From positions 2,253,300 to 2,288,713 of the forward strand of contig CP070839.1 in the NCBI GenBank assembly GCA_020341875.1: a stretch of 35,414 bases of DNA, given 5' to 3'. This stretch comes from Candidatus Zixiibacteriota bacterium. GTDB lineage: Bacteria; Zixibacteria; MSB-5A5; SM1-73. This document shows, piece by piece, positions 4,300-31,300 of the stretch; position 1 is the stretch's first letter; each line of letters opens with the position of its first letter. Made by a program: the position numbers and the translations under genes. The notes below the pieces were generated by a model, which saw only the letters and a program-made list of their open reading frames with translations, was not told the origin of the DNA and made no database searches.

Positions 4300-4365
4300 C
4301 TCCTCAATCGCGCCGCCAATCATCAGATTCGTATTCGTGCTCGGAGCCGCTCGGCACAGAAGAAA

Positions 4366-4399
4366 GCACCCAAGCCTCGGAGGCCTGGGTGCCTTTTTT
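4366..4399. terminator. Bidirectional hairpin terminator (copy 1 of a terminator repeated after each dockerin gene)
   Basis: GCACCCAAGCC (4366-4376) / GGCCTGGGTGC (4382-4392), followed by TTTTTT on the + strand and TTTCTTCT on the - strand. Lies between convergent genes. Confidence 0.65.
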
Positions 4400-4416
4400 C
4401 GTCTTCTCTGGGTCCC

Positions 4417-4959
4417 TCAACAGGCCGGCGGGTCCCCACCTCTATAGAGATAGTTGACCAGGTAGACCACATCTCCCACGTTTACTATCCCGTCGCACGT
4501 GATGTCGCCTGCCTCTAACGGTACAGGTTCTTCTCCGCTTCTGTACAGGTAGTTCACCAGGAAGACTACGTCACCAACGTTGATTATCCCGTCTCCGTTG
4601 ACATCGCCGCGGTCGACCTGCGTCGTATATACGTACCCCGCCTTCGCGCCCCAGCTGGTACTCGCGGAAAGGCCGGCGGGCGACGGCTGCCCGCCGGAGT
4701 TGACTGGAATCCTGTAGCTATCCGACTCCGATTTGCCGCCGAAGCCGCTAATGGCATCCGTCACAAGCCGGTAGCCTTGCTTTGAATCACCCAAAGGGGC
4801 CTTTTGCGGACTACTCCCCTTTGCTGCGCTAATCACAGTTTGGGTCTTTGGCTGTGAATTGGCAGACTGGATCTTGCGGTCGGATCCCGCGTACGCAAGC
4901 AGGACCACCGTCAGAGCCACGACCCCCAGGACAGCCGTTATGAATATCGTCTTTTTCAT
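4417..4959 (-). CDS. Small secreted protein with C-terminal double dockerin (paralog 1)
   Basis: Signal peptide MKKTIFITAVLGVVALTVVLLAYA. Conserved module GYRLVTD..GFGG.SESD.YRIPVNSGGQPS. Two dockerin-type repeats, GDVNGDGIINVGDVVFLVNYLYRSG and GDITCDGIVNVGDVVYLVNYLYRGG. AAGGAG SD. Confidence 0.85.
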   Translation of the reverse strand: MKKTIFITAVLGVVALTVVLLAYAGSDRKIQSANSQPKTQTVISAAKGSSPQKAPLGDSKQGYRLVTDAISGFGGKSESDSYRIPVNSGGQPSPAGLSASTSWGAKAGYVYTTQVDRGDVNGDGIINVGDVVFLVNYLYRSGEEPVPLEAGDITCDGIVNVGDVVYLVNYLYRGGDPPAC

Positions 4960-5057: not shown

Positions 5058-6611
5058 TCAGCGAAACTTGATGCTGCCATGTTGGTATAAAGAGACTTGT
5101 CCACTCCCGTGAATGCGAATGCCCTTTGACTGATCTCCTCTGCTGAAAAGAAGAGTGTTGTTGGCGCTTGTTCCCTGAAAGTCTATGGAGCCGCCTGATG
5201 TGCTGGTGCAGGTCACGGTCACTCCCGGTAGAAACTGCAGATTGTGACCAGGCTGAAAGGTTGCGCCGTTGCTCTCAGCGTCCTGGTCAAAATAACGATA
5301 GGGAAATGACGGGGGTGAGTATGTCCCGGAAAATGATGATCCCAGCGCGTTCTTTGGCCTGAGGTATATTACCATCATTTGGCTTGGCGTACCCTGGGAT
5401 TCACATATCTCATCCAGAGTATGCCAGTAGTTGCATAGCTGGGTGCTTCCGTCTGGACAATCGCACTCCGCGTCCGGGCCCCATCCAAAGTTCATATGAT
5501 ACTGCTTGGTTCTTCCGATCTCTCGCCACCCGTCACAGACGATGACATGATCCGGCAACCAATCCGTCTGAATGAGGTATAGTATAGGTCGATTCTTATT
5601 TATATCGAACTGTATGTAAGAGAACCATACGTCGGGTGGTATCATGCCACGGGGAAGACACTCAGCATCTGTGTCATATCGGAAATGATCCTCGAATCCA
5701 TCGAGCATGTCTCTGCCAAAAAAATCGTCACAAGGTTCCGCGTAAGACCAGTCGCAATTATACCACATCCCAGCTGCCTCACCAGCTTCATGGCATAACT
5801 CTGCTACCGCATCGATCTGGGCCTGGGTGACTGTATCACCATGTTCGTCCTCGAACCTAAGCTCAAGGGTGTCATAGATATACTGGTCGAGTATGTTGGG
5901 CCAATCATAGTAATCGTTGTATGGGCTGTCCTGCCCATACGGCGGCCAGCTCCAGTAACGCATGATCTGAGCGCCAGCCGTAGCAGTGCAACCCACCAAG
6001 GTATTCGAGTTGTAATCGCCATAATAGTCCCAATCGCAGCCCTCGTCTGGACAATCATCATTATAAGGGGGCTGTTGGTGCCAAGCAGAAGAAAGTAGAA
6101 CTTCGCCTTCCTGGTAGTCCAATCGGTGGAAGTCACCTGCCGCGAGCTGGTCCCACGCGTCTCCATACCTGATGTCAAGAATACTCTCCAGGTCTGAGGT
6201 TCGCACCGACTGGATCGGCCCGATTCTTGTCTCGATCGCTTCTATGATGCCCCCCATACTCGTTTTTAGTATGACTGCGATCCCCAGGTTGGATTCCGGA
6301 TCCAGACAGGCCGTCGATGAGTAAGCCTTGACCGGGGCAAGTTCCCTGCGTAGGGACACCACAATAAAGCCTCTGGGACTCACATGGCAGAAATATCCGA
6401 TCACCTTTTCCCCGTGCTTGAACTCCTCGATTCCGCTGACATAAGCTGTGGTTGATCCTCCCCAGTCTCCTCTCTTCTCGATGATCAGATTCACCCAGTT
6501 CTCCGCAACAGTCTCGACCTCGTTCATGGTCGCCATTTGGGCTTGGATAGGCGATATCATACCGATAAACCCCACCGAGGCGACCAGAATTGTCATAATC
6601 AAGTTTCTCAT
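5058..6611 (-). CDS. Secreted cysteine peptidase, C10 (streptopain/SpeB-like) with N-terminal inhibitor-type propeptide
   Basis: Catalytic-Cys block VGCTATAGAQIMRYW (compare SpeB GCVATATAQIMKYH), His block DHVIVCDGW, and HMNFGWG. The N-terminal region resembles the Spi/I69 propeptide. I prefer ATG 6611, which lies 8 nt after AGGAGG, over the track start GTG 6620. Confidence 0.82.
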   Translation of the reverse strand: MRNLIMTILVASVGFIGMISPIQAQMATMNEVETVAENWVNLIIEKRGDWGGSTTAYVSGIEEFKHGEKVIGYFCHVSPRGFIVVSLRRELAPVKAYSSTACLDPESNLGIAVILKTSMGGIIEAIETRIGPIQSVRTSDLESILDIRYGDAWDQLAAGDFHRLDYQEGEVLLSSAWHQQPPYNDDCPDEGCDWDYYGDYNSNTLVGCTATAGAQIMRYWSWPPYGQDSPYNDYYDWPNILDQYIYDTLELRFEDEHGDTVTQAQIDAVAELCHEAGEAAGMWYNCDWSYAEPCDDFFGRDMLDGFEDHFRYDTDAECLPRGMIPPDVWFSYIQFDINKNRPILYLIQTDWLPDHVIVCDGWREIGRTKQYHMNFGWGPDAECDCPDGSTQLCNYWHTLDEICESQGTPSQMMVIYLRPKNALGSSFSGTYSPPSFPYRYFDQDAESNGATFQPGHNLQFLPGVTVTCTSTSGGSIDFQGTSANNTLLFSRGDQSKGIRIHGSGQVSLYQHGSIKFR

Positions 6612-6626
6612 GATCGTCACCTCCTA

Positions 6627-8567
6627 TTACTGTAGGGTTACCAGGACCAATATCTGTCCCTTTTTGCCCTTTTCCAGCCTTTGCATCGCCTTGCCTAATA
6701 TCGAGCCCTGGGCACGTGCATAATCTGTAACCTTCATAGCATAGCCGGGTGTGGCAGATGTGGTCAAGAGGTCGCCGGGCTGGACTCCTGCTTCTTTGGC
6801 ATCCACGTTGCAGTAGACCCGACCTGCCAGAGCCACGTCAAAGTCGAATTGATCTGCGCCCAGACGCACGCCTGACCCCTGACCGTTTGCTCCGGCCACA
6901 ATGCCTGCAACCTTTTTGTCGTACGGTTGGTCTGAGATCGCCAGTTTACCGGGATTGTCCGGATCGATGATCAAGACTGACCCAGGATCTATCTTCTTGT
7001 CATTGGACACGTCAAATCCCTCGGCGTAATCAAGACCTTCACCCAATTCCATAACCGTGGTTCCACTGTTGTTTCGAATTAGGACTCTACCCCACAAGTC
7101 CGCTGAGTAGCAATCCCCATAGGCTCGGGCCCTAATGCCCGCACCACCGGTCGTATGGCAATCTGCGTACACACCAAAATTCTCGTCACCAAGCACCCCA
7201 GAGTTACCTGTCGCAGGATGGGTGCCGACGATGGCCTGAGTTGGCGACTGGCCATACACGCCGCAAACACTCCCGTACCCGCGGATACCTATGGCACCCT
7301 CACCATAGATAGCAGCGTCAGACACACCATCACCGCCAACACTCAGTCTTGATTGAGGGTTGGTCGTCCCGATGCCGACGTTATCGTTGTTAATCGTAAT
7401 CCCATGACCTGAAGCGTTAGTGATGTCGAACTGGTTCTGCATAGAACTGATGTCATAAACTGACATGTTGCCGCGCACATCCAGCTTCTCTGCGGGGCTG
7501 GTCGTCCCGATGCCCACGTTGCCCGAATCATCAAGATACATCAGAGTAGGGTTCACGCCTTGGTCACTGTCTGTCCCGTACGTTACCCGAAGTCCTTTGC
7601 CACCTCCAGCCGTCTCACGGAGGATGCCCCACTTATCCGCCAGAACTCCAGCTGTTATCTCTCCAAATGTAATTCCGGATCCGAGAGTGCCGCCCTCGTA
7701 GCTGTAAAGCCCGACTATCGCATCATTGTTCTCAACGATAAGCACGTCTGCCGCGAGTGCATCAGGCGACAAGGAGACAGTTGATTCCTGAATGTGCTGC
7801 TTGGACAAAGGTGCCTCCGTCCCGATGCCGACATTGCTCGCACCATGTGTATAGATGGTGCCGTCCTGTTTCACGCTGAGGCGCCCCGTTCCCTGCGTTT
7901 CCAAGATGACGTTACCAGCGCCGGTCGGTGCCGCCACTTTGATGTGACCATTACCGTCTTGAGAGATTTTGCCTGCGGCCGTGTTGGGCGCGCTCAGAAG
8001 CTCGACTCTGGCCCAGTCACCTGCCACCCGTATCCTGTCGTTGACCTCAAGATTCGCCTCGGGGCTGGTGGTCCCGATCCCAACCTGATCTGTATCTGTC
8101 TCCAACCTCACCACACTGCCATCATCCACCCAGCCGCCGCCTCCCCCGGCGCCGTCCGTGCTGCCCGCCCGGTAAGCGTAGGGAACACTCACCATAGGCT
8201 TGAGCGGCGCCATCTCCGGGTCCGATTCCACCTGGACACCAAGGTACTTGACGTTCCCGTCAAACACTGCCGAGGGTATCGTATCTGCTGCCCCCAGGAG
8301 AACATTGAATATCCCGTCTTCCACAATCACCTGCATCTGGGTTTCGCTCCAGTCCGCGGGTGAGCCCAGCGTATCTGGATAAATAGAAAAAGTCATCTGC
8401 ACCGTGTCGTTCACCAGACCTCCTCCGGCATCAGTCAACTTGCCCTGATAATTGATCATGTGGGGGACATCAGCAGATGCGAGAGGGGCGAAGAAAAAGA
8501 CCATCATCCCCGCCAGCACAAAAACAAAGCTTTTGCGAGCAGACGCTCGCCCGTCTGGTCGTGCCAT
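6627..8567 (-). CDS. Secreted tail-fibre-like repeat protein, paralog A
   Basis: Start moved to ATG 8567 (GAAAGGAG SD; MARPDG...SFVFVLAGMMVFFFAPLASA signal). The N-terminal domain DVP.(M/S)INYQGKLT...WSETQ...GIFNVLLG...KYLGVQVE.DPEM.PLKPMV is shared with B and C. Repeated (N/D/Q)VGIGT(T/E).P....L.V motifs are typical of phage-tail-fibre-like proteins. Distinct C-terminal domain (GLDYAEGFDVS...VAGIV...GDLLTTS.TPGYAMK). Confidence 0.85.
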   Translation of the reverse strand: MARPDGRASARKSFVFVLAGMMVFFFAPLASADVPHMINYQGKLTDAGGGLVNDTVQMTFSIYPDTLGSPADWSETQMQVIVEDGIFNVLLGAADTIPSAVFDGNVKYLGVQVESDPEMAPLKPMVSVPYAYRAGSTDGAGGGGGWVDDGSVVRLETDTDQVGIGTTSPEANLEVNDRIRVAGDWARVELLSAPNTAAGKISQDGNGHIKVAAPTGAGNVILETQGTGRLSVKQDGTIYTHGASNVGIGTEAPLSKQHIQESTVSLSPDALAADVLIVENNDAIVGLYSYEGGTLGSGITFGEITAGVLADKWGILRETAGGGKGLRVTYGTDSDQGVNPTLMYLDDSGNVGIGTTSPAEKLDVRGNMSVYDISSMQNQFDITNASGHGITINNDNVGIGTTNPQSRLSVGGDGVSDAAIYGEGAIGIRGYGSVCGVYGQSPTQAIVGTHPATGNSGVLGDENFGVYADCHTTGGAGIRARAYGDCYSADLWGRVLIRNNSGTTVMELGEGLDYAEGFDVSNDKKIDPGSVLIIDPDNPGKLAISDQPYDKKVAGIVAGANGQGSGVRLGADQFDFDVALAGRVYCNVDAKEAGVQPGDLLTTSATPGYAMKVTDYARAQGSILGKAMQRLEKGKKGQILVLVTLQ

Positions 8568-12859: not shown

Positions 12860-13402
12860 TCAACAGGCCGGTGGGTCTCCTCCTCTGTAGAGATAATTGA
12901 CCAGGTAAACTACATCTCCCACGTTCACTATCCCATCGCTGGTCACGTCGCCGGCCTCGGCCGGACAAGGTTCACCTCCGCTTCTGTACAGATAATTCAC
13001 CAGATAGACTACGTCGCCAATATTGATTATGCCGTCGGCGTTGACATCTCCCCGGGTAACCCGAGTTGCCAGGACGTAGCCCGCTCCGACGCCCCAGTTG
13101 GCGCTCTCCGAAAGACCAATGGCTGATGGCTGCCCTCCGGAGTTTACCGGAATCCGGTAATTATCCGATTCCGATTCTCCTCCGAAGCCATCAAGGACAT
13201 CCGTTACGAGCTGATACCCTTGCTTTGAACCAGTGAACGGGGTAGTCTGCGGAAGACCGGCGGCCATCGATTTGATTTCAGCGACCTCCTTTGGCTTGAC
13301 CATCTTAGACCGCACTTCCTTGTTTGACTGAGCATGCACCACAAGCACCGCAGAGAACACCAGAGCCACAAGGAATATGATTCCTAATTTGATCCTATTC
13401 AT
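12860..13402 (-). CDS. Small secreted protein with C-terminal double dockerin (paralog 3)
   Basis: Start moved to ATG 13402 (MNRIKLGIIFLVALVFSAVLVVHA signal). Same conserved module and two dockerin repeats, ending YLYRGGDPPAC. Confidence 0.85.
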   Translation of the reverse strand: MNRIKLGIIFLVALVFSAVLVVHAQSNKEVRSKMVKPKEVAEIKSMAAGLPQTTPFTGSKQGYQLVTDVLDGFGGESESDNYRIPVNSGGQPSAIGLSESANWGVGAGYVLATRVTRGDVNADGIINIGDVVYLVNYLYRSGGEPCPAEAGDVTSDGIVNVGDVVYLVNYLYRGGDPPAC

Positions 13403-13468
13403 TTTTCTCGATCCTTTGTTATGGCACTTTTTTTCCATCACGAGTAGCTCCTGACAGCACAGGAAGAG

Positions 13469-15322
13469 CTACCTCTGTTCTCTCTCCTGTTCCATCCTCT
13501 TGTTCTCTGCCTCCATCTTCTCGCGCTGCCTTTTCATCTCTTGTCTTTGTTCTTCCAGCTTGGCCCACTCCTCTTCCGTCTCTGCCCGATGTCTTGCCTG
13601 CTGCCAAGCTACTTCCTCGGGCGTAGGTTTCCCCATCTTGGCTAACCGGATATCCTCGTATCCTTTTCTTTTGGCAACGATACGATATGAGAAGGGGACG
13701 TTTGCACTTGAAGGACCTATCACCTCAAAGGTGGCAGTGGTCTTATTCGCCACGGCCAAGGTTAGTGGTTCATCCTGCGGAGTCAGAAAAACATGATATT
13801 TCACTGAGGTGTTTACGGTCTGAGCGAATAATGGATCAATCTGAATTACTGCGCTCCCATTTAGTAGTCGTCCTTCTCCGAAATCCTCAAACCAGACCTC
13901 TGGCGATTCCTGCGAGTAAAGCAGGCGGTATTCACCATTATCCACCTTCACTGCCGCGCTCTTTCCGCCTAGGACCACCAGACTGTCAGTTATCCTGACA
14001 TCGCCGCCAAAATACCCCGCCCATCCGTAGGCAGCATTTGCGGATGCATAGACACCGTATCTTGTACCCGTCCCGGTAGCACCGCCAAAGGAATCGAAAT
14101 ATCCACCATAAACAGATCCGGTAGAACGATTTGAGGCAAGAACGTGTATGCCGCGGGTAGGCCCAGCGCTGGAATCCGGTACCGAAATGTCAACTCCCGT
14201 TCGCGCTCCTGTCCCAACATATGATGGAGGTGTGTAAAACGATGCGGCGACCGACCGGCCAGATGAGCTGTTGCTCGCTTCAGCGTGGATACCATACGTG
14301 TGAGCAGAGGAGGTACCATAACCCTCAGCCCATACCCCAACAGGGCCTCCTGTCCCATCAGAAGAGGCTTGAAAGAATCCCCCTTTGGGGTACCCTGTGG
14401 AGGAATTGCTGGCATAGCCATAGACTCCGTAATGCCAGCCACTGGAGGAGCTGTAACTTCTAGCGTTTACGCCATAATGCGTTCCTGTGCCTGAAGCTGC
14501 GGCAGAAAAATACCCTGCGCAAACGTCCCCATCTGAACTATTTTCCGCTCTGCCATAAACACCGTAAGTATTTGCATTGGAAGAAGCGCTACCTGATGCT
14601 CGGATTCCGTAGTGAGTTCCTGTGCCTGAAGAGGGAGTCTCAAAATACCCCCCGTAAGCAACTCCAGTGGAAGTGTTCTCTCCATAACCCTTAATACCAT
14701 AGATTGCTGAACTGCTTCCGGTTGCTTTGCCCAAGAGAGCCGCGCCAGAGGCGGAAACAACACTGTCGGGTCCAGTGACATTCACGTATTTGTCGGTCAG
14801 AGTGCTCGTTCCCTCATACAAATCCGTCGCCACACCGGAGCGACCATAATCGTTAGCAGTCGAAAGAAAAGCCGACGCATGCTGTCCATCTAACAAGTCC
14901 GCATTCTCTGCGCTCCAGGCAAAATCGGCGGTATCTGCCTCATTCGACTTGTAAGCGTAAGCCGTGGTCACCATCGGCTTCAAAGGCGTCATCTCCGGAT
15001 CGGATTCCACCTGAACGCCCAAATACTTGGCAGCACCATCGAAGATCGAAGCCGGTAACGGATTAACACTTCCTAAAAGAACGTTGAATATCCCCTCTTT
15101 CACCTCCACTGCTGTTTGGGTCTCACTCCACTCCGACACGGTGCCGGATTCGTCGGTATAGATTGTAAAGGTCATCTGAACAGTGTCGTTGACACAACCA
15201 CCGCTGGCGGTGGTCAGCTTACCCTGATAATTGATACTGTCGGGGACGTCTGCAGATGAGACAGGGCAAAGAAGGAAAATTACCGCCCCCATCACCAGAA
15301 GCACAAAACTCTTGCGTAGCAT
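13469..15322 (-). CDS. Secreted tail-fibre-like repeat protein, paralog C
   Basis: Start moved to ATG 15322 (GAAAGGAG SD; MLRKSFVLLVMGAVIFLLCPVSSA signal). Shared N-terminal domain, with a 44-nt run at 15207-15250 identical to 12152-12195. LDGQHASAF fibre-type motif. Gly/Ser/Tyr-rich repeats (GTGTHYG..A...SS). Shared C-terminal domain plus a Glu/Arg/Lys-rich tail likely to form a coiled coil. Confidence 0.85.
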   Translation of the reverse strand: MLRKSFVLLVMGAVIFLLCPVSSADVPDSINYQGKLTTASGGCVNDTVQMTFTIYTDESGTVSEWSETQTAVEVKEGIFNVLLGSVNPLPASIFDGAAKYLGVQVESDPEMTPLKPMVTTAYAYKSNEADTADFAWSAENADLLDGQHASAFLSTANDYGRSGVATDLYEGTSTLTDKYVNVTGPDSVVSASGAALLGKATGSSSAIYGIKGYGENTSTGVAYGGYFETPSSGTGTHYGIRASGSASSNANTYGVYGRAENSSDGDVCAGYFSAAASGTGTHYGVNARSYSSSSGWHYGVYGYASNSSTGYPKGGFFQASSDGTGGPVGVWAEGYGTSSAHTYGIHAEASNSSSGRSVAASFYTPPSYVGTGARTGVDISVPDSSAGPTRGIHVLASNRSTGSVYGGYFDSFGGATGTGTRYGVYASANAAYGWAGYFGGDVRITDSLVVLGGKSAAVKVDNGEYRLLYSQESPEVWFEDFGEGRLLNGSAVIQIDPLFAQTVNTSVKYHVFLTPQDEPLTLAVANKTTATFEVIGPSSANVPFSYRIVAKRKGYEDIRLAKMGKPTPEEVAWQQARHRAETEEEWAKLEEQRQEMKRQREKMEAENKRMEQEREQR

Positions 15323-15702
15323 CACGCAACTCCTTTCGTTGGAAAAAACGTTAGCCCCATCTGTGAGCAAGACAGGCCCCCTCTTGAGAAGTCATCAGCA
15401 ATTGTTTTGTGTTTTCCACCTCCTTAGCCAAGGTTTGAATCTCAGAGTTAACGACATAAGTGAATATCCGCCCATGTGCGTCAAACGTGGAGACACGAGT
15501 CCGCTTTCCCGCATCGTTCCGGCAACGAAACAGGTGAACGCAAACGCGAAATCACGTGTCAGTAGTTCTGCCTACAATGTCATCCCCAACTTTGCCCCAG
15601 GCAAGGCTTCCGGCAAGTAATGGCGGAGCCTTCCAAGCGTAATCTACCGTGCGAAGACAAACAGCCTCTTTCAAATGTCAAACGGCCACAAATGCCTATT
15701 GT
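15323..15702 (-). promoter_or_regulatory. Conserved long 5' leader, copy 3 (upstream of fibre C)
   Basis: Same ordered blocks as copies 1 and 2. The three-way block lies at 15561-15589. Confidence 0.5.
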
Positions 15703-15708
15703 GTCAGG

Positions 15709-15736
15709 AATATACATTATCGAGTGAGAAAGTCAA
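15709..15736 (-). promoter_or_regulatory. Sigma70-like promoter of cassette 3
   Basis: TTGACT (15736-15731), 16-nt spacer, TATATT (15714-15709) on the minus strand. An 8-bp hairpin AAGAACGG/CCGTTCTT (15752-15771) lies just upstream. Confidence 0.6.
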
Positions 15737-15864
15737 GGTCTATCTTTGATCAAGAACGGATACCCGTTCTTCTGCAGAACATTTTAGCGGGAGCCTGAAG
15801 GCAGTTGGGTGTACCGAACAACGGCCAATCAACAAACCTGCCACAAGGGAACCATCTTGCCATT

Positions 15865-15930
15865 TTCAATGATCAAGGGAGAAAAGTCGGATTTCTCCAG
15901 CCCGACTTCAGGTTCACGCGGACAAGATAG
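15865..15930 (+). pseudogene. Remnant copy of the last 21 codons plus stop of the asparaginase-like gene
   Basis: Hand alignment of 15865-15930 against 4234-4299 gives 58 of 66 identical positions with no gaps. FNDQGRKVGFLQPDFRFTRTR* aligns with FNHQGKKVGFLRPDFRLKRVR*, and the stop codon is at the same position. No upstream coding continuation. Confidence 0.7.
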
Positions 15931-16009
15931 TTCTCTGCTCGACTTGTAGTCTCGAGTCGCTATTCTCTCGCCTCAAGAAGTCGAACACCAACGTCAGTTT
16001 CGCTTGGAC

Positions 16010-16136
16010 GAATCTGCGACTTCGGCTTGACCGAAAGCTCTCTCTCGCTTGATTGCACAAGGGGGAGAGAAGGACAGTACTTCATCACAGTCCCCCCAGG
16101 GGCGAGCACTCTATTTTGCGACTTTTCAAGAATAGG
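16010..16136 (+). repeat. Left copy of an imperfect direct repeat flanking the rSAM locus
   Basis: GAATCTGCGACTTCGGCTTGACCGAAAGCT... followed about 100 nt later by GGCGAGCACTC. Matches 19336-19460 at both ends with nearly equal internal spacing. Confidence 0.55.
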
Positions 16137-16323
16137 TAATCACCTGAGTTGAGAGGGATCGATTTTCCTCCCGAATCCCCGTCTTCCTTCCTGGTTCGGA
16201 CCTTAAAGCAAAAGAGCAGGGCCAATTTAAGCAGGGGCACAATAGCGAACCTAAAGACAAAATAGCGTCGGGTAATATACGTATGCGGGGGGATATATCA
16301 GTTGCGGGCCGGATAAAATATGC

Positions 16324-16352
16324 TTGACAAACGTGCTGTGATTCAATAGAGT
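16324..16352 (+). promoter_or_regulatory. Sigma70-like promoter of the rSAM/peptide operon
   Basis: TTGACA (16324-16329), 17-nt spacer, TAGAGT (16347-16352), about 100 nt upstream of ATG 16456. Confidence 0.55.
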
Positions 16353-16455
16353 GAGAATCGAAGATAATCTGTACAGCACTTTCGCAAGTAGGATTTCCGA
16401 TTTCGCTTGAAATGAACCTTCTCCCGGGACTCCAAGAGGGGAAGGCAGGGACATC

Positions 16456-17781
16456 ATGAAACCATCCCGCTTCAATCTCTTCATAGAGACTGACGATGGT
16501 AACAAATTGGCATTCAACACGATAAGCGCCGCCCTGGCTGAGGTTCTGCCGGACAAATACCCCGTCATCCAGAAGATATTGAGCGACCCCGACTCGCTGG
16601 ATTCGGACGAGGAGGAGGAGTTGTTCCACCAGCTTATCGCGGGGAAGTTCCTGGTCGATGACCAAACCGACGAAATATCCCAGCTAAAGGTCTTAAATCG
16701 CACCCAGAGGTTCGGTAAGAAGACATTGGTTCTGACCATCGCCCCCACCCTGAGCTGCAATTTCAAATGCGATTATTGTTTCGAAGGTCAGACGCGATCC
16801 ACCATGAATGAGGATACCGAGAAAGCTCTCCTTGACTTTGGCGAGAGACACCTGAGACGATCAGAGAAACTGATGATCACCTGGTTCGGAGGGGAGCCGA
16901 CCCTGTGTCTGCCCACCATCGAGAGGTTGCAGAAGAGTTTTCAGAGTCTGAGCTCGAGATATGGTGTAAGCGTTTATCCCAGCGGCATCGTCACCAACGG
17001 GTACCTTCTGGACAAGGGGATGTCCGAAAGACTGAGGGACGCGGGAATAAGAAACGCCCAGGTGACCCTGGATGGCCCGCAGGAGATTCACGACTCCCGA
17101 AGGAAGCTTCAGTCGGGCGAGGGGACGTTTGAGAGAATATTAGACAACCTGAAGGAATCTGCCCGAAACCTCTCCATACTTCTTCGGATCAACATAGACA
17201 GGGAGAATCTCGACTCCGGGTACGACCTGGTTGGGATTCTGGAGAAAGAGGGAATTCTTCCATTGGTGAACGTCAATTTTGCGCAGGTGACGGCCACGGA
17301 GGGCGCCTGTGCGGACGTCAAGGACAGATGTTTGTCCGGGCAGGAGTTTTCAGCAACCATCGTGGAATTGTACAAGAGACTTCTTCAAAGAGACTTTGAC
17401 AAAATCGCCTACCCGGTGCTCTCCTCGGGGGCATACTGCAGTGCGGATTCGGATGGTGCATTTGTGGTCTCCCCCACCGGGGACCTCTTCAAATGCTGGG
17501 AGGAGATCTCCTCCGATAACGAAAAGTCGGTGGGAAGCGTTTTCAGTCGGAAGTTGGAGCCCTTTCAAGAGAAGAACCTGAACAGGTTTCTTTCCTGGGA
17601 TCCGTTTGAGAAATCCGGGTGTTTGGGCTGCAATATCCTCCCCATATGTATGGGAGGATGTCCCAACCTGGGAATTAAATATGGAACAAGAGAGGTAGGA
17701 GTCTGCTCTTCGTGGAAATACAATTTGAAAGAGATGCTTCATCTGAAGTATCTCGCTGAACAGAACGAGGAAAGGAGGTGA
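16456..17781 (+). CDS. Radical SAM/SPASM peptide-maturase-like enzyme with N-terminal extension (possible RRE)
   Basis: CNFKCDYC (C101/C105/C108) lies after an N-terminal region of about 95 aa. GGEPTL motif. C-terminal SPASM-type cluster motifs CSADSDG...KCWEE and CLGCNILPICMGGCP. Confidence 0.88.
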   Translation: MKPSRFNLFIETDDGNKLAFNTISAALAEVLPDKYPVIQKILSDPDSLDSDEEEELFHQLIAGKFLVDDQTDEISQLKVLNRTQRFGKKTLVLTIAPTLSCNFKCDYCFEGQTRSTMNEDTEKALLDFGERHLRRSEKLMITWFGGEPTLCLPTIERLQKSFQSLSSRYGVSVYPSGIVTNGYLLDKGMSERLRDAGIRNAQVTLDGPQEIHDSRRKLQSGEGTFERILDNLKESARNLSILLRINIDRENLDSGYDLVGILEKEGILPLVNVNFAQVTATEGACADVKDRCLSGQEFSATIVELYKRLLQRDFDKIAYPVLSSGAYCSADSDGAFVVSPTGDLFKCWEEISSDNEKSVGSVFSRKLEPFQEKNLNRFLSWDPFEKSGCLGCNILPICMGGCPNLGIKYGTREVGVCSSWKYNLKEMLHLKYLAEQNEERR

Positions 17782-17782
17782 T

Positions 17783-17887
17783 ATGATGAGATACATAGTC
17801 AAGCCCCAGGAGCCCGCTCCCAAGTCCTGCCCCTGGTATTGCACCAGGTTCTTCCCGATCCTTCCCCCGTACGTTGATGAGTTCTAA
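17783..17887 (+). CDS. Candidate RiPP precursor peptide 1 (34 aa, below the ORF-track cutoff)
   Basis: MMRYIVKPQEPAPKSCPWYCTRFFPILPPYVDEF. Tandem ATG ATG lies 4 and 7 nt after a GGAGG located in the 3' end of the rSAM gene, and the ORF starts 1 nt after that gene's stop. Paralogous to 18028-18156. Confidence 0.6.
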   Translation: MMRYIVKPQEPAPKSCPWYCTRFFPILPPYVDEF

Positions 17888-18027
17888 TGTTGTCGTCGGG
17901 AAGTCTTGGGAATCGAAGTGGTAGTCTCTTAAGTTGACGCTTGAGTGCGTTGGTCTGGCAGTCCTGAATCTGCATTCCGATCGGTTTGGGCTTTTGTTGT
18001 ATCGACGCTTGAAGAAGAGGAGGTGGA

Positions 18028-18156
18028 ATGATGAGGTACATAGTCAAACCCAAAGGGAATATCGTTGTACAGGGTTGTCGGTTTTTCCCGATTCTTCCTC
18101 CTGAGCCGCCACCGCCGCCGGAACCACCGCCGATACCCTGCCCGGCGTTGAACTGA
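18028..18156 (+). CDS. Candidate RiPP precursor peptide 2 (42 aa, below the ORF-track cutoff)
   Basis: MMRYIVKPKGNIVVQGCRFFPILPPEPPPPPEPPPIPCPALN. Same GGAGGTG-ATGATG arrangement. Shares MMRYIVKP and C(T)RFFPILPP with peptide 1. Confidence 0.6.
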   Translation: MMRYIVKPKGNIVVQGCRFFPILPPEPPPPPEPPPIPCPALN

Positions 18157-18220
18157 GCCGGGAAAGGAGTTTACTCACACAAGGCTGACGCACTCAAGCA
18201 TTGTAATAGGGATCAGGAAG

Positions 18221-19273
18221 ATGAACGGAAGGAAGGAAAGGCCGGACGTCATAGGCTGGGGCATAACCCGTAACTGCAATCTCTCCTGTCCGCACTGCTA
18301 CTCTGCTTCCACGCGGCGCCTCAAAGATGAGCTTACCACCCGGGAGTGTCTGAAACTTGTGGATTCGATGATTGACCTGGGAGTGCAGACCATAGGCTGG
18401 ACCGGGGGAGAGCCGCTTTTGAGGTATGATTTGGAGGAGATCGTATTCTACGCCAAGTCCAAAGGAAACATTCGCTCCGGCGTGACCACCAACGGAATTC
18501 CTCTGACGGAAAGAAGAGCACTCAGCCTCCGGCAGGCTGGAGTCAGCTTCATTCAGATCAGTCTGGACGGCTCAACTCCCGAGAGAAATGCCCAGATGCG
18601 CAACGCGACTAAGGAGGACTTCCATCGGATCATCGGGGCCCTCCGGACATGCCAAAAACTGGGATTCAAGATGAGCCTGGCCATGATGCTGGGTGTAGAA
18701 AACTTAGATGACGGTCCTGAGTTCATAAGGTTGGCCAGAAGGGAGGGCGTTCCTTACGTCCGATTCTGCGGATTCGTTCCTCTGGGGAGGGGAAGAAAGA
18801 CAGAGATAGTAAGAAGACTATGTTTTACCCAAGAGACCTTGCCCCGTCTGAAGTCCTTTTTTGAGAAAGCCCTCAGCAACAGCAATCCCATTGTCATGCC
18901 GGATCCGGGGTTTGGACCCTTACCCACGGATTACTGTTTTCACCCTTGCGTCTCCGGAGTCAAGACCTTCTACCTCTCGTCGGTCGGAGACGTCTATCCT
19001 TGTACCTCGCTTTTGGACAAGAAGTTCTTGGTAGGAAACGTCAGAGAACGAACCCTGCAGGATCTGTGGAATGATCCCGGGATGACCTCCCTCTCCTCTT
19101 TCCCCAAAGAGAAGATCACAGGTTACTGTAGTGAATGCCGATACCTCGAGAGCTGCCGGGGTGGGTGTAGGGGGATAACCTTCGCGCACACCAACGATCT
19201 TCATGCTTCTTTTCCTTTGTGTCTGAGTAGATTGGAAAGCAGGAGACCTTTTCCTGCCTACCCCGCGACGTAA
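18221..19273 (+). CDS. Second radical SAM/SPASM enzyme (compact, PqqE/NirJ/AhbD-like architecture, no N-terminal extension)
   Basis: CNLSCPHC at C19/C23/C26. GWTGGEPLL motif. C-terminal SPASM motifs CVSG...YPCTSL and CSECRYLESCRGGCRG. Confidence 0.88.
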   Translation: MNGRKERPDVIGWGITRNCNLSCPHCYSASTRRLKDELTTRECLKLVDSMIDLGVQTIGWTGGEPLLRYDLEEIVFYAKSKGNIRSGVTTNGIPLTERRALSLRQAGVSFIQISLDGSTPERNAQMRNATKEDFHRIIGALRTCQKLGFKMSLAMMLGVENLDDGPEFIRLARREGVPYVRFCGFVPLGRGRKTEIVRRLCFTQETLPRLKSFFEKALSNSNPIVMPDPGFGPLPTDYCFHPCVSGVKTFYLSSVGDVYPCTSLLDKKFLVGNVRERTLQDLWNDPGMTSLSSFPKEKITGYCSECRYLESCRGGCRGITFAHTNDLHASFPLCLSRLESRRPFPAYPAT

Positions 19274-22339: not shown

Positions 22340-22406
22340 AAATCCGAAATTGCGGCTGAAAGTTCAGAAATATCTCTGTACTCATATTCCTGTATGGGGG
22401 ATAAAC

Positions 22407-23684
22407 ATGCGGCGAATTTTACCTTTTGTGCTGTTGGTCTTCGTGGCTTTCGCCTTCCTGGCCAAGGCGATTCCAGCGCAGGATGAGACCGAGCAGGCGC
22501 TGCAGCTTGCGGCTCCGACTGACAGCTCCGAAGAGTCAGCAGCTCAAGCGACTCAGGTACAGCAGGACAAAGAAGAACGTTTGCAGCAGGCCATCGCGTA
22601 CCAGAGAGCGAAGAACACGCTCTACTTCGTGGATCAAGGTTACGGCATTCTGTTTTTGGTTTTGTTTCTGTTTCTGGGAATCTCCGCTTTCCTGCGAAGG
22701 CAGATCGAGAGGATAACCAGAAAACGATTCTGGGTTGTGGCGTTCTACACTCTTTTTTTCCTTATCATCGCTTTCATCGTCGGATTTCCCACCAGCTACT
22801 ACGGTTTTTCTCTGGAACACAAATATGAGCTATCCAACCAGACATTCCTGCAGTGGTTCGGGGAAGAACTACTGGGCCTATTGGTTATTGGCATCATCGC
22901 TCTGATTGCGGTCGAGGGGATATATCTGGCTTTGAAGAAGGCACCCAGGACCTGGTGGATTTATGTGTCGGTGGTCTTCGTAGGTTTCGCCGTCGTGCTG
23001 GTGAACTTGGCTCCCGTTTTGATAATGCCGCTTTTTAACGTGTATACCCCTCTGCCCGAAGGAGAGCTCAGGGAAAGGCTTGTCAGTTTGTCTCATAAGG
23101 CGAACGTGGAGGTGGAGGACATCTTCACCATGGACATGAGCAAGCAGACCAAGAAGGCAAACGCGATGTTCACCGGGCTGGGCAACACCAAAAGGATCGT
23201 CCTTGGTGACAACTTGGTGGATGAGTTTAGCACAGATGAGGTAGAGGTGGTGATAGCGCATGAGATGGGGCACAATCTCATGCATCACATCTGGAAAGGG
23301 ATATTTCTCTCGGCTATTGGTTCGGCCATAGGATTTTTGATAATTCACCTGACCGGCCCCAGAATCATCATCAGATTCAGGAACAGGCTGAAGATTGATA
23401 AGATGGCGGACGTGGCCAGTCTCCCATTGATATTCCTGATATTCGTGATCTACGGTCTGATTACCATGCCCGTGTTTCCCGCCTTCTCCCGGCACATGGA
23501 AAGGCAGGCGGACAAGTTCGCACTGGATATGACTCAGAACAAGGAGGCCTTTATCTCCGCCATGGATGAGTTGGCGTATATGAACTTGTCTGATCCAAAT
23601 CCCAGCCCCATAATTGAGTTCTTGCTCTATGACCATCCACCCATATCAAAAAGGATAAAATTCGCACAGGAGTACCAATTCTAG
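22407..23684 (+). CDS. M48 family (Ste24/HtpX-like) integral-membrane zinc metallopeptidase
   Basis: Start moved to ATG 22407 (signal/TM segment MRRILPFVLLVFVAFAFLA). Multiple TM segments. HEMGH zinc motif with downstream ERQADKFA. Confidence 0.85.
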   Translation: MRRILPFVLLVFVAFAFLAKAIPAQDETEQALQLAAPTDSSEESAAQATQVQQDKEERLQQAIAYQRAKNTLYFVDQGYGILFLVLFLFLGISAFLRRQIERITRKRFWVVAFYTLFFLIIAFIVGFPTSYYGFSLEHKYELSNQTFLQWFGEELLGLLVIGIIALIAVEGIYLALKKAPRTWWIYVSVVFVGFAVVLVNLAPVLIMPLFNVYTPLPEGELRERLVSLSHKANVEVEDIFTMDMSKQTKKANAMFTGLGNTKRIVLGDNLVDEFSTDEVEVVIAHEMGHNLMHHIWKGIFLSAIGSAIGFLIIHLTGPRIIIRFRNRLKIDKMADVASLPLIFLIFVIYGLITMPVFPAFSRHMERQADKFALDMTQNKEAFISAMDELAYMNLSDPNPSPIIEFLLYDHPPISKRIKFAQEYQF

Positions 23685-23737: not shown

Positions 23738-23758
23738 GCCTTGTCCCCGGTCAACGCC

Positions 23759-24232
23759 ATGAGTTTCCAACGCAAAGTCAACAGGCTGTCACGGGAATTA
23801 TATCGTGATGCGAGATTGTATTTTCTCACCCTTTGTTGCCTTGACGGCCGACAGGTTTTCACAGATGCGCCGATTGTCGAATCTTTGTTACAGACGCTGA
23901 AGTTGTGCTGTCAGAATCATGGCTTCAAGAATTACGTGTACTGCTTCATGCCGGATCATCTCCATCTACTGGTGCAGGGCGAGGAGAAATCAGATCCGCT
24001 GAAGATGGTTAAGGAATTCAAGCAACTCACCGGATATTACTTCAAGAAAAACACTGGGGGACGTCTGTGGCAAAAGAGCTACCACGACCACATCCTTCGT
24101 AAGGAAGAAGATGCCGAAAGTGTTGTGAGATACATATTGGAAAACCCTGTGAGAAAGGCGCTCGTCGACCAGACGGAGGACTATCCGTTCTCTGGATCGT
24201 TGGAATTTGGAAAGGAGATATTCAAGATGTAG
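23759..24232 (+). CDS. REP-associated tyrosine transposase (RAYT) / IS200-like Y1 HUH protein
   Basis: HUH motif PDHLHLLV and the Tyr region QKSYHDHILR...YILENPVRKALV. ATG 23759 preferred over the track start TTG 23741. The stop codon lies inside the right REP. Confidence 0.8.
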   Translation: MSFQRKVNRLSRELYRDARLYFLTLCCLDGRQVFTDAPIVESLLQTLKLCCQNHGFKNYVYCFMPDHLHLLVQGEEKSDPLKMVKEFKQLTGYYFKKNTGGRLWQKSYHDHILRKEEDAESVVRYILENPVRKALVDQTEDYPFSGSLEFGKEIFKM

Positions 24233-28114: not shown

Positions 28115-28396
28115 GTTAGCCAACATAACAAGAGGTAAGCCTATAGGAAAAACAGTTAAAGGGTTTGTTTCGTGCTCGCTTGACACCGGAGGCACGCATC
28201 TTGTGTGCTAAGGCGAAAAGGTGGACCCGGACAACGCCGAGACGTTAGCGCCGGGTTTCTGTCAAGTTCTATGAGAGAGTCAAACCGAAAGCCCTTTGAC
28301 TGGACAGGCTGTAGGCGTCTTGGTCGAGTTGTTCCCGCCGCCGGGCTTCTGCCCGGGGGTCCTCGTGGCTTTGGAACCGGCTCGGCTTTCTTGTTT

Positions 28397-31300
28397 ATGA
28401 AGGGTCTGCTTTTCTCCAGAATCTTCAGGCTCGGAATAATTCTTCCCGCCTTACTGTGTCTGAGCCTACAAGCCAATTCCTCGTTTGCCTCAGAATACGA
28501 TGATCTTGAGATCCTGCAGTCGGATCAGGAAGGGATCATCTTCAGGTATCTGGTTCCTGATTTCTCGCGGAGCACGATTGAGCTTCAGGGAAAGTCTTTT
28601 GACCTTTTCAATATCCCCAAGTGCTGCCTATCTGACATTCCGGGAAACCCTCAACTGCCGGTAAGAAAGGTAATAGTTGCTGTTCCGCCGGAGGCGGAAT
28701 TGAGGGTGGAAGTCTTAGAAGATGAAGGTACTGAACTACCTGGTATAGACTTAGCTTTTGCTCTGACGGCCGAGCCGGACGATGAAAGTCCAGTGGGCTA
28801 CCGCCCCGTCCCCATGAAGCCCGAGCGCGTGCTGAATCAGTACTATCCCGCCGGAATTGTCTCTTTCGACTCTTCGGCTTTCCTGAGAGATCAGAGGATA
28901 GTGGAGTTGGAGATCTTTCCGATCCAGTATAATCCCTCCAGAAAAAGCGTCAGGTATCGCTCTCGGATCACAGTCAGGATCAACTTCACCGGAGGCAGGG
29001 GGGGAACTTTCAAATCCGGAAGGGACCCCTTTGAGAGGATCTATCAGAACGTCTTGCTGAATTATGAGGAGTCGAAGGGCTGGCGGAGACCTCCTCGGAC
29101 CAAGGGTTTATTGAAGCAGCCCGGCACAATCTATCCCTTTGGTTACTCCGAGGACTGGTACAAGGCGGTAGTACGCGAAAACGGCATATACAGAATAGAC
29201 CGAGCCATGCTGATGCAGGCTGGGGCTCCGGTCACCTCTATCGATCCGCGGACCCTGCGGATGTTCTCCGGCGGGGGCAAGATGCTGCCTTTGGACAGTC
29301 ATCATCCATTCCTCGAGTTCGAGGAGATGGCCATATTCGTGTCGGGGGAGGAAGACGGCCAGTTCAATGCCGACGATTTCATCCTTTTCTTCGGCTGGTC
29401 CACCAACGACTGGGAATACGATGCCTTCGGAAAAGCCATAGACTTTCATACCAATCCATATACCGATGACAACGTGTTCTGGCTGACTTTCGATCCCATA
29501 CCTTCGCTTCCCGATCCCAAACGGATGCAGATCAAGGATGGCAGCCTGGTGGAGCAGAATCCGTTTGTTCCGACGAAATTCAAGTCAAGAATCCACGCCG
29601 AACAGGACAATACCCTGAGGAAGTCTTCGGCCGGATACGTTATAGACTATTTCAACTGGTATTGGACCGAGGTCTCATCGACTCAGATGTTTGTGAGTCT
29701 GCCCGGAGGGCTGGCTCAGGATACCGTTCTGATAAAGCTGAAGCATACCGGCTCTTCTCCCAGTTTGTGGGTGAACGGTGAACCGGCTGAAGTCATAGAT
29801 TCGCTCTCCTCCGGCTTCCTGACGGTCGCCAGGAGCTTCGGCTTCCGCGGCGGTCTGGTGGACACTCTGGATATCTCCTTCCCTGGGGCCGCCTTTTTGG
29901 ACTGGTACGAGATAGAGTACTTCCGTCGGTTTGAGTGCCACGACAGGCAGCTTCTCTTTGAAAGCCCGGCGATTTCAGGGGTGACACAGTACGAGATCTC
30001 CAACCTATTCTCCTCCGGGGCATTCTTGTTTGACCTGACCGATTATTTCGAGGTCAAGAAGTTCGGAGGATTGGAGATAGATGGAGAATTTGCCAGATTT
30101 CAGGATCTGGTGTCGGCGGATACCACGACCAGATATCTGCTGGTGGACGAAAGTAAGATCAAGGTCCCGGCGCTGTTCTTCCGGGATGAGAGCTCCCATC
30201 TGAGAGAGGCTTCGAACCGGGCAGATTTCCTGATCATCACCCACTCCGATTTCCACGATCAGGCCCAGAGCCTGAGGAGCTTCCGGGAGACGTACGACCA
30301 GATCTCGGCCACGGTGATCGAAGTTCAGGACGTGTACGACGAGTTCTCCGGCGGTCTTTCTGATCCCACGGCCATTAGGGATTTTCTGAAATTCGCCTAT
30401 CAAAGCTGGGAAGAGCCGGCCCCAGCATTCGTCCTCCTGCTGGGAGACGGTAACTACGATTACAAGAATAACCTGGGTACGGGTGCGGTCAACGTCATCC
30501 CCCCCTTCGCCGCCGACCCATCCATCTCCGACGACTTGTACGTGTGGTGGGGAGACACTCTGGGTATGGTTATCAGCCGACTGCCGGTAAGGTCAACCAG
30601 GGAAGCGGAAGTGGTTGTGGACAAGATCGTATCCTATGAGGAAGAACCGGAATTTGGACCCTGGCGAAATTCGATCACCTTAGTCGCCGACGACGAATGG
30701 GAAGGCCCGGGCGAGCTTGACGGGCTGTGGAGGTTTCATACCAGGGACACCGAGATCCTGGCAAAATCTCACGTTCCATCCTCCTTCAATGTTTCCAAGA
30801 TATACCTGATGGAGTATCCCTTCGATTATAAGGGGGAGAAACCGCAGGCGGAGGACGCGGTGGTCAATGCCTTCAACTCCGGCACCCTTATCATCAACTT
30901 CATCGGGCACGGCAATCCAGACGTGTGGGCGCATGAGCGGGTGTTCAAGCGCAGTCAAGACATTGCTCGCCTCAGGAATAAGCGAAAACTCCCCCTGGTC
31001 TACACGGCCTCCTGCAGTATCGGATTCTTCTTCAGTCCTTTCAGTGAAGGAATGGCAGAGGAGTTCGTGAGGGCCGAAGACAAAGGAGCTATTGCCACTA
31101 TCTCCGCTACCTGGAACGTGTGGCCCACACCCAACGCCGAGTTGAATTTCAAAGTTTATGATCTTCTCCTGAGCGGCGATACCCTCTCCATCGGCGAGGC
31201 GCTCTTCATTGCCAAGATCCTGAGAGGGCTGGACGGTAACGATCGCAAGTACGTGCTTTTCGGTGATCCGGCCATGAAGCTGGGAGCACCTGACCTTGAG

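Follow-up and report, generated by a model that had tools for sequence, protein, structure and literature searches.

The 35,414-nucleotide stretch analysed here (the window) covers positions 2,253,300 to 2,288,713 of contig CP070839.1 (assembly GCA_020341875.1) from a Candidatus Zixiibacteriota bacterium. Within it, two different radical S-adenosylmethionine (rSAM) enzymes carrying SPASM domains, which we call rSAM1 and rSAM2, bracket two short paralogous peptide genes. We describe this arrangement as a putative cassette for a peptide made by ribosomes and modified after its translation (RiPP), with rSAM1 bearing a predicted RiPP recognition element (RRE) and rSAM2 lacking one. The features of the locus are as follows, in window coordinates.

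16456-17781, + strand: rSAM1, an RRE + radical SAM + SPASM peptide maturase of 441 aa, assigned from sequence, family models and fold match
16456-16713, + strand: putative RRE of rSAM1, residues 1-86, from predicted structure
16756-16779, + strand: CX3CX2C radical-SAM cluster motif of rSAM1, CNFKCDYC, residues 101-108 (C101, C105, C108), invariant in 26 homologues
17437-17706, + strand: SPASM region of rSAM1, with invariant Cys 328, 347, 389, 392, 398, 402 and 417
17774-17778, + strand: GGAGG Shine-Dalgarno site of peptide 1, within the 3' end of rSAM1
17779-17781, + strand: TGA stop codon of rSAM1, between the Shine-Dalgarno site and the start of peptide 1
17783-17887, + strand: peptide 1, 34 aa, MMRYIVKPQEPAPKSCPWYCTRFFPILPPYVDEF, with leader MMRYIVKPQEPAPKS and core CPWYCTRFFPILPPYVDEF
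17828-17884, + strand: core of peptide 1, from invariant Cys16 and with invariant Ile26, by alignment across subtypes
18019-18023, + strand: GGAGG Shine-Dalgarno site of peptide 2
18028-18156, + strand: peptide 2, 42 aa, MMRYIVKPKGNIVVQGCRFFPILPPEPPPPPEPPPIPCPALN, with leader MMRYIVKPKGNIVVQG and core CRFFPILPPEPPPPPEPPPIPCPALN
18076-18153, + strand: core of peptide 2, from invariant Cys17 and with invariant Ile22; a poly-Pro spacer precedes the second Cys
18221-19273, + strand: rSAM2, an RRE-less radical SAM + SPASM enzyme of 350 aa
18275-18298, + strand: CX3CX2C motif of rSAM2, CNLSCPHC, residues 19-26 (C19, C23, C26), invariant in 28 homologues
18947-19222, + strand: SPASM region of rSAM2, with invariant Cys 243, 261, 303, 306, 312, 316 and 334
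16324-16352, + strand: sigma-70-like candidate promoter, TTGACA and TAGAGT with a spacer of 17 nt, 10/12 match, some 100 nt upstream of rSAM1

Re-reading the DNA reproduced exactly the coordinates and sequences that the original prediction, made from the letters of the window alone, had assigned to both peptides, along with their translation signals. Each gene opens with tandem ATG codons, the first 4 nt and the second 7 nt after a GGAGG, and the Shine-Dalgarno site of peptide 1 does sit inside the end of rSAM1 with the TGA in between. The reported cysteine motifs were also found where they had been placed: in rSAM1 CNFKCDYC at residues 101-108 and the SPASM motif CLGCNILPICMGGC at 389-402, and in rSAM2 CNLSCPHC at 19-26 and the SPASM motif CSECRYLESCRGGC at 303-316. 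The peptide genes were missing from the list of open reading frames (ORFs) only because of its 60-aa cutoff. Public gene callers annotate such peptides in other assemblies, as products of 30-41 aa, and in a large protein collection the homologous peptides are present only as unnamed or 'hypothetical' proteins.

Shorter than the usual gene-calling length thresholds, and matching neither a Pfam family nor any NCBIfam family above its cutoff, the two small ORFs could be taken for chance open frames in an intergenic spacer that are never translated. To set against this reading we have a hidden Markov model (HMM) built from 56 homologues at other loci, with the window peptides and their MRYIV orthologues left out, and searched against all 1237 stop-to-stop segments of the window. 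It recovered peptide 1 at E = 3e-9 and peptide 2 at E = 1.3e-6, while the next best segment reached only E = 0.41. The two blocks that the paralogues share, MMRYIVKP and RFFPILPP (8 + 8 codons), differ at 7 nucleotides, and 7/7 differences are synonymous. Among 9 distinct DNA versions of a 30-aa orthologue, pN/pS is 0.11 at a pS of 0.53, and the differences fall at codon positions 1, 2 and 3 in the numbers 134, 52 and 343, a pattern from which we conclude that the orthologues are translated and held under purifying selection. With strong Shine-Dalgarno sites upstream of both ORFs and homologues in more than 60 loci besides, these comparisons identify both small ORFs as real, translated genes under purifying selection; on the same sequence evidence the chance-ORF explanation is refuted, and we regard it as vanishingly improbable.

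The small ORFs beside the rSAM pair belong to one family of 62 distinct sequences, 23-44 aa long and mostly about 30, and one more precursor subtype turned up in loci where the HMM had found none. Start codons are often GTG, and the GGAGG upstream of homologous precursors is visible as in-frame GGE or GGD residues. Leaders take the form M-(K/R/E)-(F/Y/L/I)-(I/V/L)-x-x-(P/S), and the first Cys is preceded by 14 or 15 residues in 38/60 precursors (range 7-21). The cores are rich in Pro (17%), Cys (14%), Ile (11%), Leu (10%) and Tyr (8%) and poor in Asp (2.8%) and Glu (1.3%). No precursor among the 62 has fewer than two Cys, and in 47 the number is exactly two. Only three columns are invariant across all subtypes: a Met in the initiator region, the first Cys and a single Ile (M2, C16 and I26 in peptide 1; M2, C17 and I22 in peptide 2). 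An [FYW]-x-[IV]-[ILVS] motif occurs in 51/60 cores against 4.9 +/- 2.1 in shuffled cores, an enrichment that is overstated because related peptides are counted as independent.

Within this family the commonest subtype, ...CPCYKxLFLILPP(W/LQD), is sited between the two enzymes, and another, ...PHYIICxxxGPxYIICxxY, with 2 or 3 tandem aromatic-I-I-C units, lies upstream of rSAM1. Peptide 1 falls into a ...CPWYC(K/T)RFFPILPP subtype together with the precursor of locus L043, CPWYCKRFFPILPPD, which is the nearest core elsewhere. Peptide 2 represents a poly-Pro-tailed subtype with an orthologue in L001, MRYIVKAKEKFTIHGCPFYPIIPAEPPEPPEPPPIPCPPLF, identical copies of which occur in L167 and L168; a spacing of 21 between the first and second Cys is seen in two distinct precursors only, peptide 2 and this orthologue. 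The peptides had been described as Pro-rich paralogues. The paralogy stands, but Pro-richness does not define the family; only the closest relatives of the window share the poly-Pro tail seen in peptide 2. What marks the family as a whole is a minimum of two Cys, a single invariant Ile and, in most members, the aromatic-x-Ile-hydrophobic motif.

Comparative genomics supports a functional unit. Database relatives number 1062 for rSAM1 (E <= 1e-20) and 756 for rSAM2 (E <= 1e-15); nearly all are unnamed, and the named ones come mostly from metagenome-assembled genomes (MAGs) of Zixibacteria. In 80 genome and 80 metagenome loci sampled with rSAM1 as the anchor, the two enzymes are paired in about 40/80 and 24/80, respectively, and the full succession of rSAM1, peptide and rSAM2 recurs in more than 60 loci. 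Conservation of the peptide ORFs next to rSAM homologues, which had been put forward as a check, is thus found, and the proposal of a RiPP locus in which two rSAM/SPASM enzymes bracket paralogous precursors is upheld. Whenever the contig is long enough, rSAM1 homologues of at least about 43% identity are directly followed by an rSAM2 homologue (45-74% identity), whereas none at 42% identity or below has an adjoining rSAM2. In a neighbour-joining tree, 60/61 paired rSAM1 sequences lie on one side of a single bipartition; that side otherwise contains just 3 'unpaired' sequences, whose contigs (2.1-2.7 kb) are too short to show a neighbour. From this identity threshold and single bipartition we conclude that the partnership between rSAM1 and rSAM2 arose once and was kept. 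By label, the host MAGs belong to Zixibacteria, Ignavibacteria(les), Acidobacteriota/Terriglobia and GN15, and several carry two cassettes. Taken as a whole, we consider it very likely that rSAM1, one or more short precursors and rSAM2 act together as a self-contained three-part RiPP cassette.

Some loci depart from this layout. Two tandem rSAM1 paralogues accompany a single rSAM2 in L013 (4668-7323), L018 (4632-7305), L087 (526-3221) and L088 (1601-4296). L018 and L087 contain, besides, a pair of leader types, MKFI(I/V)EPF.NLS... and (M/V/L)(K/R)FIE(K/Q)PQKKEV..., an indication that the RREs have each diversified in step with a leader of their own. A Desulfobacterales MAG (L058, 1936-7329, + strand) carries four tandem rSAM1-family paralogues with 34-36% identity to the window enzyme; the leader and Shine-Dalgarno screen of this locus gave no matching precursor.

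The predicted model of rSAM1 (predicted local distance difference test score, pLDDT, 89.5) passes from an RRE topology into the radical-SAM barrel and then the SPASM domain. Residues 1-86 are modelled as three strands (7-11, 17-21 and 26-30) and three helices (35-43, 51-62 and 73-86), a block with pLDDT of at least 91. The closest solved folds are CteB (template-modelling score, TM, 0.68; PDB 5WGG), TigE (TM 0.65; 8VPO) and SuiB, which match over the full length including the RRE. The proposal that the roughly 95 N-terminal residues hold an RRE is therefore borne out at the level of predicted structure; among Pfam models at E <= 1, Radical_SAM and Fer4_12 were the only ones to match rSAM1, and hence no PqqD-type match was seen. 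PF04055 scores 57.7 bits and the SPASM model TIGR04085 51 bits (cutoff 27). Across 26 homologues, C101, C105 and C108 and nine further cysteines are invariant, C285 and C292 lying upstream of the SPASM region. The best NCBIfam model, the Clo7bot maturase TIGR04334, aligns over positions 1-439 of 440 at 354 bits (cutoff 600), followed below their cutoffs by TIGR04463 (302; cutoff 525), CefB (236; 600), the ranthipeptide enzyme PapB, NF047865 (114; 340), and the SCIFF maturase TIGR03974 (81; 425). Scores on the cyclophane models YhhB, GrrM and AmcB are 47-57 bits against cutoffs of 310-445, and the FxsB model (cutoff 370) gives 38-45 bits for the rSAM1 homologues of L038 and L012.

The model of rSAM2 (pLDDT 89.1) has no RRE and opens directly with the radical-SAM barrel, in agreement with the predicted lack of an N-terminal extension. 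PqqE is its top fold match, and SkfB, CteB, SuiB and anSME are also found. PF04055 scores 112 bits and the SPASM model PF13186 40 bits (cutoff 21.5). Besides C19, C23 and C26, eight cysteines are conserved, seven of them invariant in 28 homologues and C183 present in at least 90%; from the alignment, these eight would be enough for two fully ligated auxiliary clusters. Both cysteine sets are intact in each enzyme, and the two enzymes are apparently active.

Because its best NCBIfam scores include AhbC (157 bits), AhbD (155), MftC (149), NirJ (144) and PqqE (112), and a few database copies are auto-named 'AdoMet-dependent heme synthase', rSAM2 might be read as a haem- or cofactor-pathway enzyme that neighbours the peptides by chance and does not act on them. 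These scores lie far under the respective cutoffs (650, 500, 265, 515 and 381), and the best score of rSAM2 on any model, 161 bits, reaches no cutoff either. The neighbourhoods show no conserved partner gene of the haem, mycofactocin or PQQ pathways, and rSAM2 adjoins peptide genes in over 60 loci from several phyla, some of them without rSAM1. Assignment to a non-peptide family, which had been raised as the result that would speak against a RiPP locus, is thus not what the models and neighbourhoods indicate, and we consider a cofactor role highly improbable.

There are also loci with rSAM2 alone. For two of the relatives closest to rSAM2 (67-68% identity, L161-L166), the surrounding 5 kb contain no rSAM1 gene; four other sampled relatives show the usual paired layout. 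Directly upstream of rSAM2 in these loci lie the peptides MEYLIDPEEVTTSGACPKYSPCIRYCKMFFPICPPW and MEYLIDPRELTIPAACPRYCKLYFPICPPWDGES (L164), ending in ...CPRYCKLYFPICPPW. Their cores are of the type found in paired loci, and their leader (MEYLIDP) is related but distinct. Since rSAM2-only loci adjoin peptides of the same type, rSAM2 would itself be a peptide maturase that does without an RRE and, judged from these contigs, probably needs neither rSAM1 nor the RRE of rSAM1.

Two features of the rSAM2-only contigs deserve mention in their own right. Downstream of the rSAM2-only gene of L161, two more peptides with MEYLIDP/MEFLIDP leaders (6248-6367 and 6822-6953, + strand) keep CPK(F/Y)..P..C in the core and lack the FFPI(C/L)PPW tail, so that what rSAM2 recognises may be the Cys-Pro-x-aromatic portion at the N-terminus of the core instead of its hydrophobic tail. 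In L164, four small proteins of 51-63 aa (2084-2239, 2342-2533, 2662-2850 and 4248-4436, + strand) flank the cassette; each has a signal-peptide-like hydrophobic N-terminus and a very Cys/Trp-rich C-terminus, for example ...CDCWCMVCMENPPYWCWEVCCKCPTFP; they may be additional substrates or secreted peptides of no relation to the cassette.

What known system is the cassette closest to? The peptides had been called new and of no recognised type. They do appear to represent a new sister family, but they are no orphans: they carry a Clo7bot-superfamily leader, and the alignment of rSAM1 to the Clo7bot maturase model runs over the whole length. Clo7bot is itself bioinformatically defined, by the maturase family TIGR04334 and the Cys-rich peptides of TIGR04333. 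Two rSAM2-less Clostridia loci are true Clo7bot, with maturases of 775 and 718 bits (cutoff 600) and peptides of 48 and 37 bits (cutoff 31) in L062 and L055, respectively. Their leader is MKYIVKP where the window peptides have MMRYIVKP, and MKYIVKP followed by Cys-rich cores is found in the rSAM2-less Clostridia loci L055, L062, L065 and L070 alike. Acidobacteriota CALCSEDPRFC systems, again without rSAM2, share the leader too. Since more distant rSAM1 homologues that lack rSAM2 adjoin peptides with the same leader and different cores, we assign MMRYIVKP to the Clo7bot superfamily of leaders. The maturases have the same architecture as rSAM1, and in both systems short tandem precursors stand beside the enzyme. 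By contrast, Clo7bot cores have 5-8 Cys where those of the window family are hydrophobic, rich in Pro, Ile and Leu and have two; the second rSAM/SPASM enzyme, always present in the window family, is absent from the verified Clo7bot loci L055 and L062; and the hosts are Clostridia in the one case and Zixibacteria, Acidobacteriota and related MAGs in the other. On the Clo7bot peptide model peptide 2 scores 12 bits (cutoff 31; E 0.14) through its leader only, and peptide 1 has no match; on the maturase model the paired locus L012 scores 301 bits. Because every curated family cutoff failed, we regard the cassette as a sister family of Clo7bot and not as a member. Our literature search found no paper naming Clo7bot, TIGR04334, TIGR04463, TIGR04333 or NF052473 and none on radical SAM RiPPs or ranthipeptides of Zixibacteria; queries for OhkG/FlmE returned unrelated papers only.

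In the Acidobacteriota loci, as many as eight precursors in tandem, patterned MKFVVRSQ...C..TMCALCSEDPRFC (L038, 5393-7424; L040, 8377-9689; L039, 9599-9951; L034, 9609-9725; all on the - strand) lie 1-3 kb from an rSAM1-family maturase, without rSAM2. At L038 the maturase falls short of all NCBIfam cutoffs (TIGR04463, 302 against 525 bits). By sequence, these loci look like another unnamed sister RiPP family sharing the leader.

Other comparisons are instructive mainly for their differences. CteB, a thioether-forming SCIFF maturase, is the solved structure closest to rSAM1, and SCIFF is likewise a minimal cassette of precursor and maturase with no known dedicated protease or exporter. However, SCIFF precursors are 45-residue, six-Cys peptides, and the window family has a second enzyme; the precursors lack the six Cys of SCIFF and, with cores this poor in Asp and Glu, do not fit the Cys-X3-Asp/Glu motifs by which ranthipeptides are recognised. 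Thuricin CD (TrnC/TrnD) and ruminococcin C (RumMC1/RumMC2) resemble the cassette in joining two rSAM/SPASM enzymes with two precursors. Here one enzyme bears an RRE and the other does not, each occurs alone in sister systems, and the homology is at the superfamily level only. Thuricin CD and ruminococcin C clusters also encode export or immunity functions, of which the window cassette has none. rSAM2 has the domain layout and size of PqqE and MftC, but these work with a separate PqqD or MftB chaperone, whereas no PqqD-like, MftB-like or cofactor genes lie near rSAM2 and the precursors are unrelated. TigE, finally, is the second-closest fold of rSAM1 and modifies Ile, and the window core has its invariant Ile; unlike the TigE/TvgB systems, the window family has neither the Gly-Tyr-Trp motif nor a repeating TIGSVS-type core.

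These comparisons suggest a working mechanism for the three-part cassette. The leader, M-(K/R)-(F/Y)-I-x-x-P within the roughly 14 residues before the first Cys, would dock as a strand on the RRE of rSAM1. By 5'-deoxyadenosyl radical chemistry rSAM1 would then introduce a cross-link at a core Cys, the likeliest being a thioether to a carbon of another residue, since its relatives CteB, PapB, QhpD, Clo7bot and CefB all go with Cys-containing substrates. rSAM2 would add a second radical modification to the same core, which could be a further thioether, a C-C cyclophane link between an aromatic residue and Ile, or an alteration of the invariant Ile. If the leader is removed and the product exported, general cell functions would see to it; otherwise the product may remain in the cell or membrane. 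From the alignments, the best candidates for reaction sites are the invariant Cys and Ile. Two successive modifications of one peptide are plausible; an rSAM2-only variant exists. The combination of a thioether with a second radical modification is a guess. Leader type tracks the RRE-bearing rSAM1 lineage, and the two-Cys, Ile-containing hydrophobic core tracks rSAM2, a correlation in the sampled loci.

Several points weigh against this scheme. The cassette is known from sequence and predicted structures, and peptide modification accordingly stays putative. The pairing of leader with rSAM1 and core with rSAM2 is correlative only, and some paired loci have ME(I/V)LEEG leaders that resemble the rSAM2-only MEYLIDP. 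Both enzymes score under every curated NCBIfam cutoff, and exact chemistry is not deducible from homology this distant, in keeping with the explicit statement that the reaction chemistry of an uncharacterised rSAM enzyme is not predictable from distant homology (PMC10288494). The rSAM2-only contigs were viewed within 5 kb, so their genomes may carry an rSAM1 gene at another place. The core motif, as noted, is less enriched than its statistics imply, and no protease or exporter is conserved that would point to the fate of the product.

In thuricin CD, TrnC and TrnD bind each other tightly, as a complex in which neither works alone and only the radical chemistry of TrnC is essential (PMC12093266). 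By this precedent the window pair might be an obligate complex installing one type of cross-link, with the radical chemistry of one enzyme essential and the other serving for leader binding (rSAM1) or scaffolding. That the RRE is on rSAM1 only and that the pair is strictly co-inherited would agree with such a complex. However, the aligned homologues (26 of rSAM1, 28 of rSAM2) retain the CX3CX2C motif and complete auxiliary-cluster cysteines in both enzymes, rSAM2 stands beside peptides of this kind in loci with no rSAM1 gene, and relatives of rSAM1 work without rSAM2 in Clo7bot and the Acidobacteriota sister systems. We therefore consider an obligate single-chemistry complex improbable.

A different possibility is that the key chemistry takes place at the invariant Ile or the hydrophobic stretch and is not a thioether: L-to-D epimerisation as by YydG/EpeE or PoyD, methyl-cyclopropylglycine formation as by TigE, or a three-residue cyclophane at the aromatic-x-Ile motif, triceptide-like, with the Cys left for a disulfide or a cluster contact. 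The one Ile kept across all subtypes and the strong enrichment of aromatic-x-(I/V) in the cores speak for chemistry of this kind, as do the closeness of the TigE fold to rSAM1 and the weak rSAM1 matches to the cyclophane-forming YhhB, GrrM and AmcB. Yet those matches are the ones that fall at 47-57 bits against cutoffs of 310-445, and the structural match of rSAM2 to EpeE is distant, at rank 49. Cyclopropyl synthases TvgB and TigE are defined by a Gly-Tyr-Trp motif whose Tyr is a ligand to auxiliary cluster I (PMC10878394); the motif is absent from 26/26 rSAM1 homologues, and a cyclopropyl synthase, an idea taken from the 8VPO match, was rejected on that count. At least two Cys are kept in every precursor, and the closest named relatives of rSAM1 (Clo7bot, TIGR04463, CefB and PapB) pair with Cys-rich or Cys-containing precursors. 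Chemistry centred on Ile in place of a thioether seems to us rather unlikely, and we retain a Cys cross-link by rSAM1 followed by a second modification by rSAM2 as the preferred scheme. Taken to its furthest, that scheme would describe a new RiPP class, with an undescribed cross-link (for example a thioether from Cys sulfur to Ile together with an aromatic-to-Ile C-C link) made by two rSAM lineages, the RRE-less one recognising its substrate without a recognition domain, and with a very small hydrophobic product that works inside the cell or membrane of Zixibacteria and Acidobacteriota and is not a secreted bacteriocin; this is possible, but we doubt it.

No further gene travels with the cassette. 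All-vs-all clustering of flanking ORFs found nothing in more than 8/41 loci besides the two rSAM enzymes, and the absence of an adjacent protease, exporter or immunity gene, first observed in the window, holds family-wide in these flank comparisons. The window neighbours that were considered as partners (an HDIG protein, a TrpB-like pyridoxal-phosphate enzyme, Thi4, an M48 peptidase, an IS200-like transposase, an aconitase-family protein and the upstream dockerin proteins) were rejected, being absent from L001-L080 apart from dockerin matches. These are short dockerin-domain matches in the flanks of 7 loci, of generic domain similarity and not conserved in position. The M48 peptidase gene, at 22350-23684 and 3 kb downstream, accompanies the cassette in 0 of L001-L080. 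The window is otherwise ordinary chromosome, with genes for PBP1A, the TrpB-like enzyme, Thi4, a LeuC-like protein and the type IX secretion proteins PorU and PorV. An Rfam scan of the window gave no matches, and the spacers flanking peptide 2 and the stretch just past rSAM2 fold no better than shuffles (z -0.03 to +1.2). Promoter-like and terminator-like sites are not above chance: 3 sigma-70-like sites were found in the region against a shuffled expectation of 2.7, and for this reason the site at 16324-16352 is a candidate promoter only.

Several neighbouring features may be recorded for completeness. The roughly 1.1 kb at 15371-16455, between a divergent 633-aa gene and rSAM1, hold no notable ORF and no Rfam match, the sigma-70-like site being their sole feature. 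At 12860-15370 (- strand) a dockerin-domain protein of 193 aa adjoins that 633-aa protein, a Gly/Ser/Tyr-rich repeat protein with a Glu/Arg/Lys-rich C-terminal tail and no Pfam match. An IS200-like Y1 transposase ORF (23741-24232, + strand; Y1_Tnp, E = 9e-14) lies between the M48 peptidase and aconitase-family genes. Type IX secretion genes occupy 28205-34740 (+ strand), among them those for a PorU sortase (740 bits) and a member of the PorV/PorQ family; such genes fit a host of the FCB group or Zixibacteria and are unlinked to the cassette in other loci.

The family is new as a sister family of Clo7bot, without a fitting curated model, a source name or a paper that we could find, while its kind, an rSAM/SPASM RiPP cassette with an RRE-bearing maturase, is well known. 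What distinguishes it is the obligate second, RRE-less maturase, the very small two-Cys hydrophobic core and the occurrence of each enzyme alone in nature as well. Radical SAM/SPASM enzymes are a main source of new peptide chemistry, and the cassette adds to them a well-delimited and abundant family that is a good target for enzymology, although it will not surprise specialists. With precursors of 23-44 aa and two enzymes only, it should be easy to express, and because nature provides rSAM1 alone, rSAM2 alone and both together, the leader-reading and the core-reading enzyme can be sorted out. If rSAM2 does act without an RRE, it would be a case of RRE-independent substrate recognition. The source phyla are without cultured producers, and the cassette is common in uncultured Zixibacteria and Acidobacteriota; with no protease, exporter or immunity gene beside it and several cassettes in some MAGs, it raises for these organisms the question, as SCIFF does, of what cellular role minimal rSAM peptides play.

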